DNA of 8,825 bases from a virus (lineage: Duplodnaviria; Heunggongvirae; Uroviricota; Caudoviricetes). The stretch lies in IMG/VR virus record IMGVR_UViG_2693429621_000011; one strand, 5' to 3'. The translations under genes were made by a program, and so were the position numbers. The notes under the pieces are model-generated. The model saw only the letters and a program-made list of their open reading frames with translations, made no database searches and was not told where the DNA came from. Below are positions 4,065 through 8,825 of this stretch, piece by piece; within the stretch, counting starts at the first letter, position 1, and each line of letters starts with the position of its first letter.

Positions 4065-4219
4065 ATTTCTCTAATCAGGAACTGGAAGCTGCCTCGCAGA
4101 GTTTTGAGCAGTTTTCACCCTCTCGTTAAATTCTTCTGAATGTGCCTCGGGGAACGCAAAATTCCCACCAGACAACCGCTCAACAAAGTTGCACACTTTC
4201 CATAAACAGGGAGGAGTGC

Positions 4220-5335
4220 ATGAAAATAACGACAGTCGACGTATGCATAATTTGCGGAATTTTTCCGTTGCTGATTTTGCCCCAATTGCCTGGGACATTA
4301 GCCCTTGCGTTTCTGACTCTCTTCGCCTGCGTACTGGCATTTATACCTGTTAAAACCGTCCGTTATATCGCGCTGACGTTGCTGTTTTTCGTTTGGGGCA
4401 TATTATCAGCAAAGCAAATTTTGTGGGCAGGAGAAACCTTAACTGGCGCGACGCAGGATGCAATTGTTGAGATCACTGCTACTGACGGCATGACCACTCA
4501 TTACGGTCAAATTACTTATCTACAAGGTCGACGTATATTCCCTGCGCCAGGCCTTGTGCTGTATGGCGAATATCTTCCGCAAGCGGTTTGTGCCGGACAA
4601 CTGTGGTCAATGAAACTCAAAGTTCGTGCCGTTCATGGTCAACTTAATGATGGCGGCTTTGATAGCCAGCGTTATGCCATTGCCCAGCATCAGCCGCTCA
4701 CCGGCCGCTTTCTGCAGGCAAGTCTTATTGAACCGAATTGTAGCCTGCGTGCACAGTATCTGGCGTCACTACAAACAACGCTGCAACCCTATCCGTGGAA
4801 TGCGGTTATTCTTGGTTTAGGTATGGGGGAACGGTTATCCGTCCCCAAAGAAATCAAAAATATCATGCGCGATACTGGAACGGCGCATTTAATGGCGATA
4901 TCGGGATTGCACATCGCTTTTGCGGTGTTGCTGGCTGCCGGACTCATTCGCAGTGGACAAATTTTTCTGCCTGGGCGCTGGATCCACTGGCAAATACCAT
5001 TAATTGGTGGGATCTGCTGTGCTGCTTTTTATGCCTGGTTGACGGGAATGCAACCTCCTGCATTGCGTACCGTGGTGGCGCTTGCTACGTGGGGAATGCT
5101 TAAGTTAAGTGGGCGACAGTGGAGTGGCTGGGATGTATGGATATGTTGTCTGGCGGCAATTTTGCTGATGGATCCTGTTGCCATTCTCTCGCAAAGTTTA
5201 TGGCTCTCTGCCGCTGCGGTCGCGGCACTGATTTTTTGGTATCAGTGGTTTCCCTGTCCTGAGTGGCAACTTGAGATAGCCGCAGAAGTCCACCAGCGAA
5301 TCGCCCTCGCGTTTTATCACCAGAGCTTCTTCTGA
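4220..5335 (+). CDS. ycaI: ComEC-family inner-membrane protein YcaI, N-terminal ~370 codons only; reading frame ends prematurely where foreign DNA begins (probable disrupted gene or pseudogene fragment)
   Basis: ORF 4142..5335; likely start is ATG 4220 with SD GGGAGGAG upstream (MKITTVDVCIICGIFPLLIL...); multiple hydrophobic helices; full-length E. coli YcaI is about twice this length; its last ~20 codons overlap the 3' end of the opposite-strand primase-like gene. Confidence 0.7.
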   Translation: MKITTVDVCIICGIFPLLILPQLPGTLALAFLTLFACVLAFIPVKTVRYIALTLLFFVWGILSAKQILWAGETLTGATQDAIVEITATDGMTTHYGQITYLQGRRIFPAPGLVLYGEYLPQAVCAGQLWSMKLKVRAVHGQLNDGGFDSQRYAIAQHQPLTGRFLQASLIEPNCSLRAQYLASLQTTLQPYPWNAVILGLGMGERLSVPKEIKNIMRDTGTAHLMAISGLHIAFAVLLAAGLIRSGQIFLPGRWIHWQIPLIGGICCAAFYAWLTGMQPPALRTVVALATWGMLKLSGRQWSGWDVWICCLAAILLMDPVAILSQSLWLSAAAVAALIFWYQWFPCPEWQLEIAAEVHQRIALAFYHQSFF

Positions 5336-6793
5336 TTTCTGCTGCTCATACAGCAGGCGTTTAGCTTCGTCCTGGTCAGAAAAACGAGTAAGCAGGTGGC
5401 GAATCACAACCGCCAGCTCTCCTTCTATTTTTTCTGCCAGCATGGGGTCGCGTTCGTTCTCCGGTACAACTTCCGAAAAATTGAATATCACCCGACGACG
5501 TGAGATCCCCCCGCTGCGGTCACTGAATGACATGGCGTTATTGTTAACCGCCAGCACTACTGCCGGAATACGCGTTGAGTAGGGGGCTTTGTGTTTCGGG
5601 TCAATTGCCACCTTGTCACCGCCTGTAATGGCCTTAATCCCTGCCCCATCACCAGCGTAGCGGGTCATATCCGGCATGATAATCAGCGAAAAGCCAACCA
5701 CTAACGCGCGTTCCCTTGCATCTTCCAGCGCCTTCATGCTTGCCGATACTGTGTTGGCCTTACCCGCCAGCATGGTGCAAATCTCCGCCATCACGCTTTT
5801 ACCACTTCCCCCTGGACCTGTTACCTCAATGAATAACTGCCAGTCGTACCGGTTCGCCAGCACCATGAATAATACAGCCAGTACGCGATCCGCCTTGCGG
5901 TCATTCTCAGCCACCGAACGGCGTAACCACTTCCAGAAATTCGGCGCATGTGTTGCCAGCGTTTCCCCCTCTGCTGGTGGGCTGAAAGGTAATTCACTGG
6001 CAATTAACAACCAGTCGTTTTTGTTATGCTCCCGAAAATTACCTGTTCTGGTATCAAATACCCCGTTACTGAATCCAATCAGGTTACGGGCTGTATTCCC
6101 CATTACAGGCAAACTTAACTTCATGGTATCGACCGCCGATTTAATGGCGTTCTGCGAATAGCTGATCTCCGCATCAATGAAAATCTGTGCCATAGCTCGC
6201 TGTAATTCTTTATCCTGTACTGGCTCCCATACAACGCCGTTGTAATGGTGAACAGTGTCAGAGTCAGCATGAATCGCCAGTTCACCGCCATAATGTGCCA
6301 GGAGAACTTCGCCGCGTTGACTTGCTCCCATCTGGTTAAGCGCCAGTGATGAAGCGTTATCGTCTTTTACCCGCTCTTTTTTCTTTACAGGCAGTTCAAC
6401 TACCTTTTTCTTTTCCGCCTGCTCTGCCCGTTCACGTTCCAGATATTCGCGCCAGTTCTCCCGTTTCTGGCTGTGCATTCCTTCAGGGTAATAATCAGCA
6501 TCCCTGACACCTGCCGCTGCCAGTTTCTGCCCGATGGTATTAACAAGCCCCGGACGCAATAACCCCGCCTGGTAGAGACGCACCCGATAGCGTCCGTCCG
6601 GTACGATTTGCAGCTTATCCAGTTCGGCAAGTTGTTGTTCTCCAAGCCAGACAGGAGGCACGCTGTCGCCAGCCAGTCGCCCGTCCTGTTCCTGCCACTG
6701 CTTCGCATGTGCCCACGCATCATTACCCGCAAAAATGATGACTTCCGTCATTTTGTCACGCGGCTGGTGTTTTAAATTTGGCGCTTTTTTCAT
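5198..6793 (-). CDS. Phage/plasmid primase-helicase-like replication protein (D5-N-like region plus P4-type primase C-terminal NTPase domain, Walker A GPGGSGKS), ~531 aa
   Basis: ORF 5198..6808; likely start is ATG at 6793-6791 (SD GGAGAG ~7 nt upstream) overlapping the stop of the upstream gene as ATGA; Walker A motif TGPGGSGKS and downstream hydrophobic strand LVVGFSLIIMPD typical of SF3/P4-alpha-type NTPases; the last ~27 codons read antisense through ycaI-derived sequence. Confidence 0.75.
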   Translation of the reverse strand: MKKAPNLKHQPRDKMTEVIIFAGNDAWAHAKQWQEQDGRLAGDSVPPVWLGEQQLAELDKLQIVPDGRYRVRLYQAGLLRPGLVNTIGQKLAAAGVRDADYYPEGMHSQKRENWREYLERERAEQAEKKKVVELPVKKKERVKDDNASSLALNQMGASQRGEVLLAHYGGELAIHADSDTVHHYNGVVWEPVQDKELQRAMAQIFIDAEISYSQNAIKSAVDTMKLSLPVMGNTARNLIGFSNGVFDTRTGNFREHNKNDWLLIASELPFSPPAEGETLATHAPNFWKWLRRSVAENDRKADRVLAVLFMVLANRYDWQLFIEVTGPGGSGKSVMAEICTMLAGKANTVSASMKALEDARERALVVGFSLIIMPDMTRYAGDGAGIKAITGGDKVAIDPKHKAPYSTRIPAVVLAVNNNAMSFSDRSGGISRRRVIFNFSEVVPENERDPMLAEKIEGELAVVIRHLLTRFSDQDEAKRLLYEQQKSEEALVIKREGDSLVDFCGYLKLPLRTGKPLIPKNQCRDRSGREP

Positions 6794-7089
6794 TTCTGCT
6801 CTCTCCACGCGGCAATCATGTTTTTCAGTTCCTGTAGTTTTTTATCAACATCCATACATGACACATGGTTATTTCTGGAAAGCGGGATTTCCCGCCTGAA
6901 TCTGCTAATAAAGATCTCCACGTTCAGCGAACTATGAAATGAATAGCCATCACGAATAAAATACACACGGTCAAACATCAGTTCTTTTACCGTTACTCTG
7001 TTACCGTTCTTATCCAGATAAATAGCGCCGGGGATAATTTTGGGGTGTGCATAACCGCTGGCAGTCAAGCCAGATAAATACGTTCTCAT
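6790..7089 (-). CDS. Hypothetical protein, 99 aa, second gene of the leftward operon
   Basis: ORF with ATG start 6 nt after the stop of the upstream 106-aa gene; its TGA stop overlaps the ATG of the primase-like gene (ATGA coupling); no recognisable motif. Confidence 0.55.
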   Translation of the reverse strand: MRTYLSGLTASGYAHPKIIPGAIYLDKNGNRVTVKELMFDRVYFIRDGYSFHSSLNVEIFISRFRREIPLSRNNHVSCMDVDKKLQELKNMIAAWREQK

Positions 7090-7095
7090 GATTAT

Positions 7096-7416
7096 TTATC
7101 TCAGATTTGAATCAGTATTCGCTTTCTCTATGGCATTTAATGCATCTGTGGCATTTTCAATGGTGCACCGTAACGAAATATCAAACTGCCCAAGCATTGC
7201 CAGTAACAAGCCAATATTACCCATGTCAATGCGCATAGCCTTTTCGTCATATTCCTCATTTTCTGACGCATGCCACATCAGGCTACCAATTGACGCAACA
7301 GCCATTGATATATTGTCAGTAGCCCCATCCGCAGCGGAATAAACCTTTTTAGCAATATCATGCTCACAGTTAAAATGCGGATTAATCAGGTACTGGTAAT
7401 TGGTCATGTCAGGCAT
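7096..7416 (-). CDS. Hypothetical protein, 106 aa, first long gene of the leftward operon
   Basis: ORF 7096..7458; best start is ATG 7416-7414 preceded by a perfect SD AGGAGG with 6-nt spacer; acidic small protein; no recognisable motif. Confidence 0.6.
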   Translation of the reverse strand: MPDMTNYQYLINPHFNCEHDIAKKVYSAADGATDNISMAVASIGSLMWHASENEEYDEKAMRIDMGNIGLLLAMLGQFDISLRCTIENATDALNAIEKANTDSNLR

Positions 7417-7606
7417 GGCACACCTCCTGACGAATACGGGCGGCGAATACAGCAACACAACCTGACGGGCAACGGTTACGCGCTTCGCGTTCCGTCCAGG
7501 CGGTTACGTGGATGATTTGAGATTCTCCGGCACTCAGGGCCAGAAAACGCCACACAAAGGCCGTTTGTGTGTGTACAAGGTGTGGTATATGATTTACGGC
7601 AACCAT
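7409..7606 (-). CDS. Candidate small leader ORF (65 aa) in the operon leader; ends 5 nt inside the start of the 106-aa gene
   Basis: ATG 7606-7604 preceded by SD GAGGAG with 5-nt spacer; stop TGA 7411-7409 overlaps the ATG at 7416-7414 of the next gene (ATGCCTGA); contains the hairpin at 7551-7571; an antisense ORF with SD-like sequence also exists, so the call is tentative. Confidence 0.3.
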   Translation of the reverse strand: MVAVNHIPHLVHTQTAFVWRFLALSAGESQIIHVTAWTEREARNRCPSGCVAVFAARIRQEVCHA

Positions 7607-7708
7607 AACGGCTCCTCGTTTACGTTGTTGGTTAGAAGCCCTGCGAGTGGTAACGACACTTGCGGGGCTTCGTCGTTTCAATTGCTGAATTGCATGTATC
7701 AGCACTTG

Positions 7709-7763
7709 TGGTATTCACATTACATTTAGGTGAATACCATTTCAAGTCTTTTTTGGTATTCAC
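7709..7763. promoter_or_regulatory. Candidate operator array / RNA switch: 10-bp motif TGGTATTCAC at 7709-7718 and 7754-7763 (direct) and its exact reverse complement GTGAATACCA at 7730-7739; overlaps a putative leftward promoter (-35 TTGAAA, 17-bp spacer, -10 TAATGT on the minus strand)
   Basis: Three exact 10-mers within 55 bp of the divergent intergenic region between the leftward replication operon and the rightward RHH gene. Confidence 0.5.
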
Positions 7764-7806
7764 TTTTGTATTACACTGCATCCCGTTATTAATGGGAGGT
7801 GCAAAC

Positions 7807-8112
7807 ATGTCCAGGAGTTCTGTTAACAATAAGTCACAGCAACTGAATGCCAGATTTCCACATGAAGTAGTGAGTGGCATTGAGGCATCCCTACAGCCAG
7901 GGGAAACTAAAGCGAATTTTATAGTTACGGCTGTACGCGGTGAGATCGCCAGGCGCCAGGCAGAAGGAAGTGGAGAAAATCCCCTTGTGTCTTCACTGGA
8001 TGCCCTAGCTAATGTCGAACAAATCGGCATCAAGGCAGCGGAGGAAATCGGGCAGCTTATCACCGTTGCACGCGAAGAACTCCAGCGCCGCAAGGCCAAA
8101 GAATCAGAATAA
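7807..8112 (+). CDS. Putative ribbon-helix-helix DNA-binding regulator (resembles YlcI/YnfO-like prophage proteins), 101 aa
   Basis: ORF 7660..8112; best start is ATG 7807 with SD GGGAGGTG 7 nt upstream; N-terminal pattern NARFPHEVVSGIEASL...ANFIVTAVRGEIARR fits a beta-strand/helix/helix (RHH) DNA-binding fold; acidic C-terminal tail. Confidence 0.6.
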   Translation: MSRSSVNNKSQQLNARFPHEVVSGIEASLQPGETKANFIVTAVRGEIARRQAEGSGENPLVSSLDALANVEQIGIKAAEEIGQLITVAREELQRRKAKESE

Positions 8113-8169
8113 TCACTATCAGCGCCGTGGTGTGAGGAACTCCGGCGCATTGCTTTACAGGCGCACACA

Positions 8170-8346
8170 ATGACCAACGAAGAATCAACCAAAAAAACAT
8201 CACCTGCACGAAAAAGACGACGCAGAAAGAAAGAGCATGAATCAGAACGATTCGCGCCGTGTTCTTTTGCCCTTGAGAAGTACCTTAAAGAATACTCATC
8301 AAAGGAGAGAGCTTCGCAGTTATGGCAACGCACTGAAACAGACTGA
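8170..8346 (+). CDS. Possible small basic protein (58 aa); the frame is ambiguous, with an alternative 50-aa ORF in the +1 frame at 8237..8389
   Basis: ATG at 8170 with Arg/Lys-rich N-terminus (KKTSPARKRRRRKK); no convincing SD; below the length cutoff of the supplied ORF track. Confidence 0.2.
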   Translation: MTNEESTKKTSPARKRRRRKKEHESERFAPCSFALEKYLKEYSSKERASQLWQRTETD

Positions 8347-8410
8347 TAGCATTGCCCACCAGCCTGATAGCGGCTATCATTGACATGCTTATGTTTAGTG
8401 TTTCCAAACT

Positions 8411-8438
8411 GGCGACCGCCCCAGGTCGCCTTTGTTTT
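8411..8438 (+). terminator. Rho-independent terminator: stem GGCGACC/GGTCGCC (8411-8417 / 8424-8430), loop GCCCCA, then TTTGTTTT
   Basis: Perfect 7-bp GC-rich stem followed by a T-run; ends the rightward RHH transcription unit just before the convergent alpA-like gene. Confidence 0.65.
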
Positions 8439-8457
8439 ATGTGTCATATGCTCCCCT

Positions 8458-8667
8458 TTACACTGCCTTACCTGAATTAATGCGATCCCGGCTTTTAACC
8501 CATTCCATAACCTCGGACAGCAGCCACCCTACAGAACGACCGCCCAGATTAAGACGTGACGGAAAGCGCCCTTTTTTCTCCAGTTCGTAACGTGTAGTGC
8601 GGCACACTCCAGTTAACTTACGACATTCATCCTCACGGATTACGCGATCTTCATTTATTTCACGCAT
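8458..8667 (-). CDS. alpA: AlpA-family prophage transcriptional regulator / excisionase-like helix-turn-helix protein, ~69 aa
   Basis: ORF 8458..8754 begins with a GTG that abuts its own SD-like AAGAGG, so the internal ATG at 8667 is preferred; core VIREDECRKLTGVCRTTRYELEKKGRFPSRLNLGGRSVGWLLSEVMEWV matches the AlpA/Vis-type pattern (..TG.SR.T.Y.....G.FP....LG.R.VGW...E...W). Confidence 0.65.
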   Translation of the reverse strand: MREINEDRVIREDECRKLTGVCRTTRYELEKKGRFPSRLNLGGRSVGWLLSEVMEWVKSRDRINSGKAV

Positions 8668-8825
8668 ACAAAAACCTACATAAAAATTACGTATATAAAC
8701 TTTTCTCTTAGCTGTAGATATATGAGATCGGATATTACTTAGATTCTTTTTCACCTCTTAAATTAAAAACACAACCATGCTGGTAATGACTCCAACTTAT
8801 TGATAGTGTTTTATGTTCAGATAAT

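Follow-up and report, generated by a model that had tools for sequence, protein, structure and literature searches.

The phage-inducible chromosomal islands (PICIs) of Gram-negative bacteria have int, alpA and pri as their essential conserved genes, with AlpA as the helper-induced activator and an origin located downstream of pri (PMC6092414; bioRxiv 10.1101/2022.09.08.507074; PMC10111431). AlpA acts as the master activator in these islands (PMC6092414; PMC11773190), the roles of alpA, pri and the origin being treated in several studies (PMC6092414; PMC10111431; PMC11773190), and a dynamic or variable zone between the integration (alpA) and replication zones has already been described (PMC10111431). 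We analysed a stretch of 8,825 nucleotides (nt) from a Caudoviricetes record (IMG/VR IMGVR_UViG_2693429621_000011), referred to below as the window, in which an earlier note, made from the letters alone, had pointed to a leftward operon of two small genes and a primase/helicase-like gene resembling the epsilon-orf-alpha layout of satellite phage P4. This block is very probably the early/replication operon of a Gram-negative PICI or capsid-forming PICI (cf-PICI), kept as a defective remnant, and the element is a PICI or cf-PICI rather than a P4-type satellite. The satellite DNA in the window amounts to ∼3.5 kb (5272-8781), with a rearrangement on one flank and an IS1 copy on the other.

The operon and its intact relatives

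Three open reading frames (ORFs) are packed on the minus strand at 7096-7416 (106 residues from ATG), 6790-7089 (99 residues) and 5198-6793 (531 residues from ATG). The TAA of the 106-residue gene is separated by 6 nt (7090-7095) from the ATG of the 99-residue gene, which in turn meets the replicase gene in an ATGA stop/start overlap (6790-6793), so the coordinates and spacing of the trio had been read correctly. What had been missed is a fourth gene that heads the same operon: a 65-residue ORF (7409-7606, minus strand) with a phage_ICD_like domain (NCBIfam NF033153, E 1.1e-17; 63.8 bits against a cut-off of 25) and a match to phrog_1743 (5.6e-23). Its stop overlaps the start of the 106-residue gene by 8 nt (ATGCCTGA), and it is annotated at the same 65-residue length in relatives. 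The Icd-like protein is named after a cell-division inhibitor.

The 627-bp stretch containing both small genes (6790-7416) was found at 94-99.8% identity in 474 of 5426 complete Escherichia coli genomes, and the order Icd-like, hypothetical, DUF4222, replicase was annotated in 39 of 40 sampled rows of those genomes, so that the neighbourhood check proposed with the original prediction found the trio kept in related elements. Pairwise ratios of non-synonymous to synonymous substitution (dN/dS) were 0.17-0.46 for the small genes in most comparisons (a single pair gave 0.81, from 4 differences) and 0.04-0.13 for the replicase. In light of the conserved annotated pair, these ratios and the homologues of the 106-residue protein in other Enterobacterales genera (25-48% identity), all three ORFs are genuine genes and not chance ORFs.

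The identity of the element was read from complete relatives in which the small proteins are 96-100% identical to those of the window and the replicase is 98-99.6% identical over residues 1-507. The intact relatives run from int and alpA through a divergent ylcI to the leftward unit of icd-like gene, 106-residue gene, DUF4222 gene and replicase, followed by an AT-rich iteron origin and by genes for single-stranded DNA-binding protein (SSB)/PerC, capsid or packaging. The complete relatives thus start with a tyrosine integrase and alpA, share the block and then differ in their late modules: islands between clpS and cspD carry a fusion of ClpP protease and major capsid protein (MCP), and the cf-PICI in tqsA of strain 10153 carries a complete set for an HK97-type head, portal, connector, HNH and terminase. 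The latter is very close to the window, its 106-residue protein differing at one residue (99% identical) and its 99-residue gene being DNA-identical. Another copy is embedded in a helper, in the large-terminase gene of the Stx1a prophage of O157:H7 146N4 (6000-16200 of locus L015; NZ_CP076237.1), helper-embedded PICIs of this kind having been described (PMC10111431), and a 10,790-bp circular molecule assembled as a 'plasmid' is a whole island.

The gene order is the same in the cf-PICIs and classical PICIs compared, namely EcCIEDL933 (OI-51/CP-933C), EcCICFT073, EcCIED1a, the strain 10153 island and pZ1323HEC0475-3, whereas the window lacks the replicase C-terminus, the origin, SSB/PerC and the late genes and has IS1 upstream of alpA. 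EcCIEDL933 differs further in having a DUF927 replicase and no member of the 106-residue family, and in carrying three other small genes plus RgdR before the replicase. Two traits of the PICI class are present in the window, an AlpA-family regulator (69 residues; 8458-8667, minus strand; Pfam Phage_AlpA 2.1e-16) and, downstream of alpA, a co-oriented replicase ('pri') of the Pox_D5/D5_N/DUF927 class whose gene is truncated. A late zone, whether a capsid homologue or a capsid/portal/terminase set, was not found left of 5271, where the window is host DNA. As the late zone is missing, the window holds a remnant of a PICI-class element and not a complete member.

A truncated replicase between ycaI and IS1

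The replicase gene (5198-6793, minus strand; Pfam D5_N 1.3e-13 and DUF5906 9e-11; phrog_864 4e-159) specifies a satellite-specific N-terminal domain (residues 1 to ∼135), a D5_N part and a superfamily 3 (SF3) helicase (DUF5906, with a P-loop), and 505 of its residues 1-507 are identical to the 605-residue replicase of the strain 10153 cf-PICI. To its left lies the 5′ part of the host gene ycaI (ComEC family; 4142-5271, plus strand; Pfam Competence and DUF4131), which is 99.7% identical to E. coli ycaI up to 5271 and no further. The junction falls at 5269-5272, with up to 3 nt shared by the two partners: because the satellite match stops at 5269-5272 and the ycaI match reaches 5271, the last 24 codons of the 531-residue ORF (5198-5272) are antisense ycaI. 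Accordingly, ycaI is broken after ∼377 codons and joined head-to-tail, in antisense, to the replicase gene after codon 507. The last 98 residues of the replicase are lost, and with them the Pox_D5 domain (residues 496-591 of the intact 605-residue protein). The ORF and the helicase of the ∼531-residue P-loop protein originally described are therefore real, but the '531-residue primase' is a fusion artefact of the rearrangement and not an intact gene.

The origin has gone as well. Directly after the replicase gene of one complete relative (L026), ten GGTGAACAGT iterons in both orientations occupy a stretch of 33-36% GC, an arrangement typical of an origin. The same iteron gave a single chance-level match in the window, the origin region having been lost at the ycaI junction. 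In an intact island, the SF3 replicase would bind the downstream iterons via its C-terminal Pox_D5 domain and so start satellite replication; since the window replicase is without its last 98 residues and the origin is lost, the remnant module cannot replicate, and its four small genes are still intact.

The description of this protein as primase/helicase-like held for the helicase, which is homologous to that of P4 alpha, but not for the primase: neither Zn_Ribbon_Prim nor Toprim was matched by the window replicase in Pfam. As had been suspected, its N-terminal region carries no catalytic motifs; it extends over ∼135-145 residues and has no Pfam match. We considered whether it could be a degenerate Toprim domain, its 'IIFAGNDA' resembling 'EGYATA' of P4, and rejected this, as there was no Pfam match even at E ≤ 1, hhalign against the P4 alpha primase region returned a probability of 0.3%, the alignment showed no conserved acidic catalytic residues and a PDB profile search came back empty. 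By tblastn (E ≤ 1e-4) the domain was found in only five phage-database records, four of them being the cf-PICI vB_KppS-Ant, two Pasteurella PICIs and a 3.2-kb unannotated Salmonella record; the fifth is a 106.5-kb Klebsiella phage (P12620-1), where the domain heads a hypothetical protein. As no primase domain can be recognised in the replicase, the host or the helper probably provides priming in trans.

On the right flank, likeness to related islands stops at 8781, and an IS1 terminal inverted repeat (GGTAATGACTCCAACTTATTGATAGTG...) occupies 8782-8825, 115 bp upstream of where alpA starts, and continues beyond the window; positions 8764-8825 match the IS1A/IS1B ends present on thousands of plasmids. 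This IS1 copy parts alpA from its upstream sequence, which in relatives is the integrase, and suggests an IS-rich genome, Shigella-like or otherwise rearranged.

Two small proteins and the slot they occupy

The two small proteins had both been taken as unknown and without recognisable motif, which stands for the first and not for the second. The 106-residue protein (7096-7416, minus strand) gave no match in Pfam, NCBIfam or PADLOC, its sole match being phrog_15327 (7e-71), a PHROG of unassigned function. An exhaustive search of 1.84 billion representative proteins returned 15 matches, three of which were long proteins (1200-1650 residues with tetratricopeptide-like or other repeats) that we judged to be repeat-summed chance matches. 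With a profile search the family grew to 43 clusters (Escherichia, Kluyvera, Erwinia and Klebsiella), and its known members come from satellites of no fewer than five named genera (Escherichia, Pantoea, Raoultella, Serratia and Kluyvera), besides others in Erwinia and Klebsiella. Neither small protein had a tblastn match in 50,697 phage records, and the 106-residue family is restricted to satellites. Several of its members bear the name 'ubiquinol-cytochrome C reductase' in NCBI/UniRef (P0075, P0077, P0081, P0083); this name finds no support in sequence, model or gene context. The AlphaFold (AF2) model, with a predicted local distance difference test score (pLDDT) of 84.9, is a confident helical hairpin of two long helices (19-51 and 58-105), and the invariant residues of the family (G44, L46, M47, Y56 and G69) lie near the turn. 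When compared with BFVD and PDB, this model retrieved only generic helical hairpins (E > 0.1), and a PDB sequence search gave nothing significant. The profile searches and structure prediction that had been recommended for this protein thus led to the uncharacterised phrog_15327 and to this predicted fold.

The gene context of the family is consistent. Of 15 loci (Escherichia, Pantoea, Raoultella, Serratia and metagenomes), 14 had an integrase, and all 15 had the family gene downstream of an Icd-like ORF, directly so (8-nt overlap) in the E. coli loci and in L005. Between the family gene and the replicase stand one to three small genes, and the replicase itself is of the D5/SF3, DUF927 or AAA_25 type. 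Since the family travels with three unrelated replicase families, the partner of the 106-residue protein is most probably a host or helper protein and not the replicase.

The 99-residue protein (6790-7089, minus strand) is, by contrast with the original reading, readily classified by profile search: it is a DUF4222 protein (Pfam 7.4e-17, 61.1 bits against a gathering cut-off of 27; phrog_285) and a divergent member of the RgdR family. The one studied DUF4222 member, RgdR (ECs1581, 99 residues), is encoded in O-island 51/CP-933C of enterohaemorrhagic E. coli (EHEC) O157:H7; it activates the LEE1 promoter of the enterocyte-effacement locus (LEE), represses motility and raises Congo-red binding, and this small, basic protein binds to DNA weakly and without specificity (PMC3378721; PMC10877973). 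Among the natural variants tested, the RGD motif at residues 20-22 was required for LEE activation, and R20C in the natural ED1a variant suffices to abolish it (PMC3378721). We located rgdR of EDL933 at 18743-19042 of our locus L019, in a 15-kb cf-PICI between roxA and phoQ, where it lies directly upstream of the DUF927 replicase gene with a 4-nt overlap, as its counterpart does in the window. The two proteins are thus alike in length, in their DUF4222 domain and in their place immediately upstream of a satellite replicase, but the window protein is only 31% identical to RgdR of EcCIEDL933 (E 1e-12) and has PGA aligned to the RGD tripeptide. A structure model of the 99-residue protein, built from near-identical homologues only, had a pLDDT of 46.5 and could not be used.

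What lies between icd and the replicase varies from one satellite to the next. The cf-PICI vB_KppS-Ant, whose replicase is 75% identical to that of the window, has two different small genes there; Serratia has a member of the 106-residue family together with phrog_6610; and the satellites of Serratia, Pantoea and Raoultella and those from metagenomes show an Icd-like gene, the 106-residue family, phrog_6610 or others, and then a D5/SF3, DUF927 or AAA_25 replicase. In P4 the same slot holds epsilon, orf151 and orf106.

Control region, comparison with P4 and competing explanations

Upstream of the operon, a divergent control region (7607-7806) separates icd from a YlcI/YnfO-family gene (101 residues; 7807-8112, plus strand; NCBIfam YlcI_YnfO_N 3.1e-16), an arrangement shared by most related loci examined, and the YlcI/YnfO-family protein is a candidate regulator of the operon. 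The region holds three perfect 10-mers, TGGTATTCAC/GTGAATACCA (direct, inverted, direct), at 7709-7763, a count reached in 0 of 200 shuffles. Three related elements have other repeat sequences, which change along with the ylcI allele, while the motif CTTGA(A/C) between the repeats stays the same. This arrangement resembles an operator/promoter set, for which the YlcI-family protein is a candidate cognate repressor. A leader hairpin upstream of icd (7635-7671, minus-strand transcript; 15-bp arms, GAAGCCCCGCAAGTG...CACTCGCAGGGCTTC) has related hairpins at the corresponding site in nine PICIs (E. coli, Serratia and one cf-PICI derived from Klebsiella). Its conservation is chiefly at the sequence level, compensatory change being seen in only 2 pairs, and its fold z-score is -2.1; it matched no Rfam family, the P4 C4/CI RNA included. 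Downstream of ylcI lies a 58-residue ORF (8170-8346, plus strand; phrog_21027 7.8e-13), which relatives carry as a hypothetical gene and which is an annotated coding sequence in L001. Between this ORF and the convergent alpA, a GC-rich hairpin with a T-run at 8411-8430 is likely the terminator of the ylcI unit, which would make alpA and the icd operon separate transcription units. By analogy with published PICI biology, a helper phage would switch on AlpA, and the operon would then be transcribed from the ylcI/icd intergenic region with its putative operators.

The comparison with P4 was borne out in part. The AlpA of the window is 43% identical to P4 Orf88, residues 145-521 of the replicase are 50% identical to residues 320-702 of P4 alpha (the D5_N and SF3 helicase parts), and phrog_1743 is matched by the Icd-like protein as well as by the P4 'cI' ORF in its C-terminal part; these homologous genes stand in the same order in the left operon of P4, the gene after the Icd-like ORF has the 8-nt overlap in both, and the intact relatives also share the C-terminal Pox_D5 domain of P4 alpha. 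The resemblance comes from true synteny and from the common descent of part of the operon. There are, however, no homologues of epsilon, orf151 or orf106: BLASTP revealed no similarity of the small proteins to any of them, hhalign against epsilon was negative, and no window protein matched the Derepression family PF25738 in Pfam. Where the first 300 residues of P4 alpha comprise a zinc ribbon and a Toprim primase, the window replicase has its ∼135-residue domain without family match. The C4/CI RNA, isrK and c4-a1b1 (seqA-type) elements were all detected in P4, whereas an Rfam scan found none of them in the window from 5000 to 8825 (E ≤ 1) or in three related PICI loci. Likewise, sid, delta and psu are not in the window and appear in the annotations of none of the complete relatives examined (by annotation only, with no profile search), the late modules of these relatives being ClpP/MCP or HK97-type head modules and packaging sets. 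The epsilon-orf-alpha layout thus stands as synteny, with homologous AlpA, Icd-like and helicase genes, but the small genes are unrelated and the element is not of the P4 type. P4-like and PICI satellites are better described as having in common a scaffold of alpA, icd-like gene and helicase replicase, in which the slot between icd and the replicase is filled differently.

What the small proteins do within this scaffold can be weighed against the same evidence. That the operon is of the P4 type, with one of the small proteins acting as an epsilon-like anti-repressor that derepresses a resident helper prophage, is very unlikely. The idea draws on the syntenic order (orf88/alpA, Icd-like ORF, small genes, alpha-like helicase), on the 8-nt overlap that the 106-residue gene shares with epsilon and on the restriction of its family to satellites; it is countered by the lack of any sequence or profile similarity to epsilon, of a PF25738 match and of a significant viral-library fold match (E ≤ 0.001), by the missing P4 hallmarks (C4/CI RNA, isrK/seqA elements, Toprim/zinc-ribbon primase), by relatives that carry PICI capsid and packaging modules and no annotated sid, delta or psu, and by the fact that known PICIs are induced by helpers and are not inducers of them (PMC6092414). 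The anti-repressor candidacy put forward in the earlier note is not supported, no evidence of an epsilon-like function having been found. We regard it as unlikely, though less so, that the conserved and exchangeable slot common to P4-like satellites and PICIs holds in the 106-residue protein, with its epsilon-like position and overlap geometry, a non-homologous analogue of epsilon or another helper- or host-targeting factor. Dedicated accessory factors of the replicase, such as a loader, an origin-binding partner or a primase recruiter, would explain the tight coupling (6-nt gap and ATGA overlap) by a physical complex; in the window as in EcCIEDL933 a DUF4222 gene directly precedes the replicase gene, overlapping it by 4 nt, RgdR binds DNA weakly (PMC3378721), and a partner is conceivable for a replicase without a primase domain. 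Replicase-specific partners are, however, expected to co-vary with the replicase, whereas the 106-residue family occurs alongside D5/SF3, DUF927 and AAA_25 replicases, DUF4222 alongside D5/SF3 and DUF927, and the 75% identical replicase of vB_KppS-Ant has neither small protein, so that this role is rather improbable. The proposal that the small genes are anti-phage defence or counter-defence cargo is highly improbable: satellites often carry defence genes, according to passages in PMC10085698 and PMC13612085, and the slot does vary between elements, but no PADLOC family was matched, the genes sit within the early/replication operon and not in a separate accessory region, and the proteins are of ∼100 residues with no enzymatic motif.

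The reading of the block as a decayed PICI operon has its own weak points. The ycaI junction may be a real rearrangement or an assembly artefact, either being possible. An assembly or scaffolding chimera, which would make the truncation itself an artefact, has a small probability in our estimation: none of the 5426 complete E. coli genomes has the junction, and the two loci that it links share no more than 3 nt there, yet a second, independent disruption, by IS1 at 8782, accords with a genome that is rich in IS copies and rearranged, and the gene orientations would fit a simple inversion between the clpS/cspD-site island and ycaI, as judged from gene order (a deletion or an assembly chimera would be possible as well). 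Further points weigh on the same side. The integrase, which adjoins alpA in all intact relatives, and the integration site lie outside the window, which ends within the IS1 copy at 8825, so that a cf-PICI or a classical PICI origin are both possible. The minus strand of the ylcI/icd intergenic region yielded no sigma-70 consensus, and the operon promoter and its control by AlpA or YlcI are inferred. The predicted helical-hairpin fold says nothing about the role of the 106-residue family, and, given 31% identity and PGA where RgdR has RGD, the regulatory activity of RgdR cannot be transferred to the DUF4222 protein of the window.

Taken together, our results show that the locus is a defective copy of a known satellite module, and its novelty is low; for annotation, it should be read as a decayed PICI fragment, and neither as a P4-like element nor as an active replicon. 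Two biological points are of modest value, and neither will surprise specialists, by whom a variable zone between alpA and the replication genes has been described already (PMC10111431). The 106-residue family, steadily coupled to an Icd-like gene across genera, is a reasonable knock-out candidate in tractable EcCI systems, and if the slot does hold a helper- or host-targeting factor, this could be one needed for PICI induction. A link between RgdR and the PICI replication module is absent from PMC3378721, PMC10877973, PMC6092414 and PMC10111431. The slot directly upstream of the replicases of PICIs is regularly occupied by this virulence regulator's family, which ties an EHEC virulence regulator to satellite biology. 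Because the phenotypes of RgdR (LEE up, motility down, more Congo-red binding) resemble those of H-NS loss, RgdR-type DUF4222 proteins might natively be satellite-encoded modulators of nucleoid-associated silencing.

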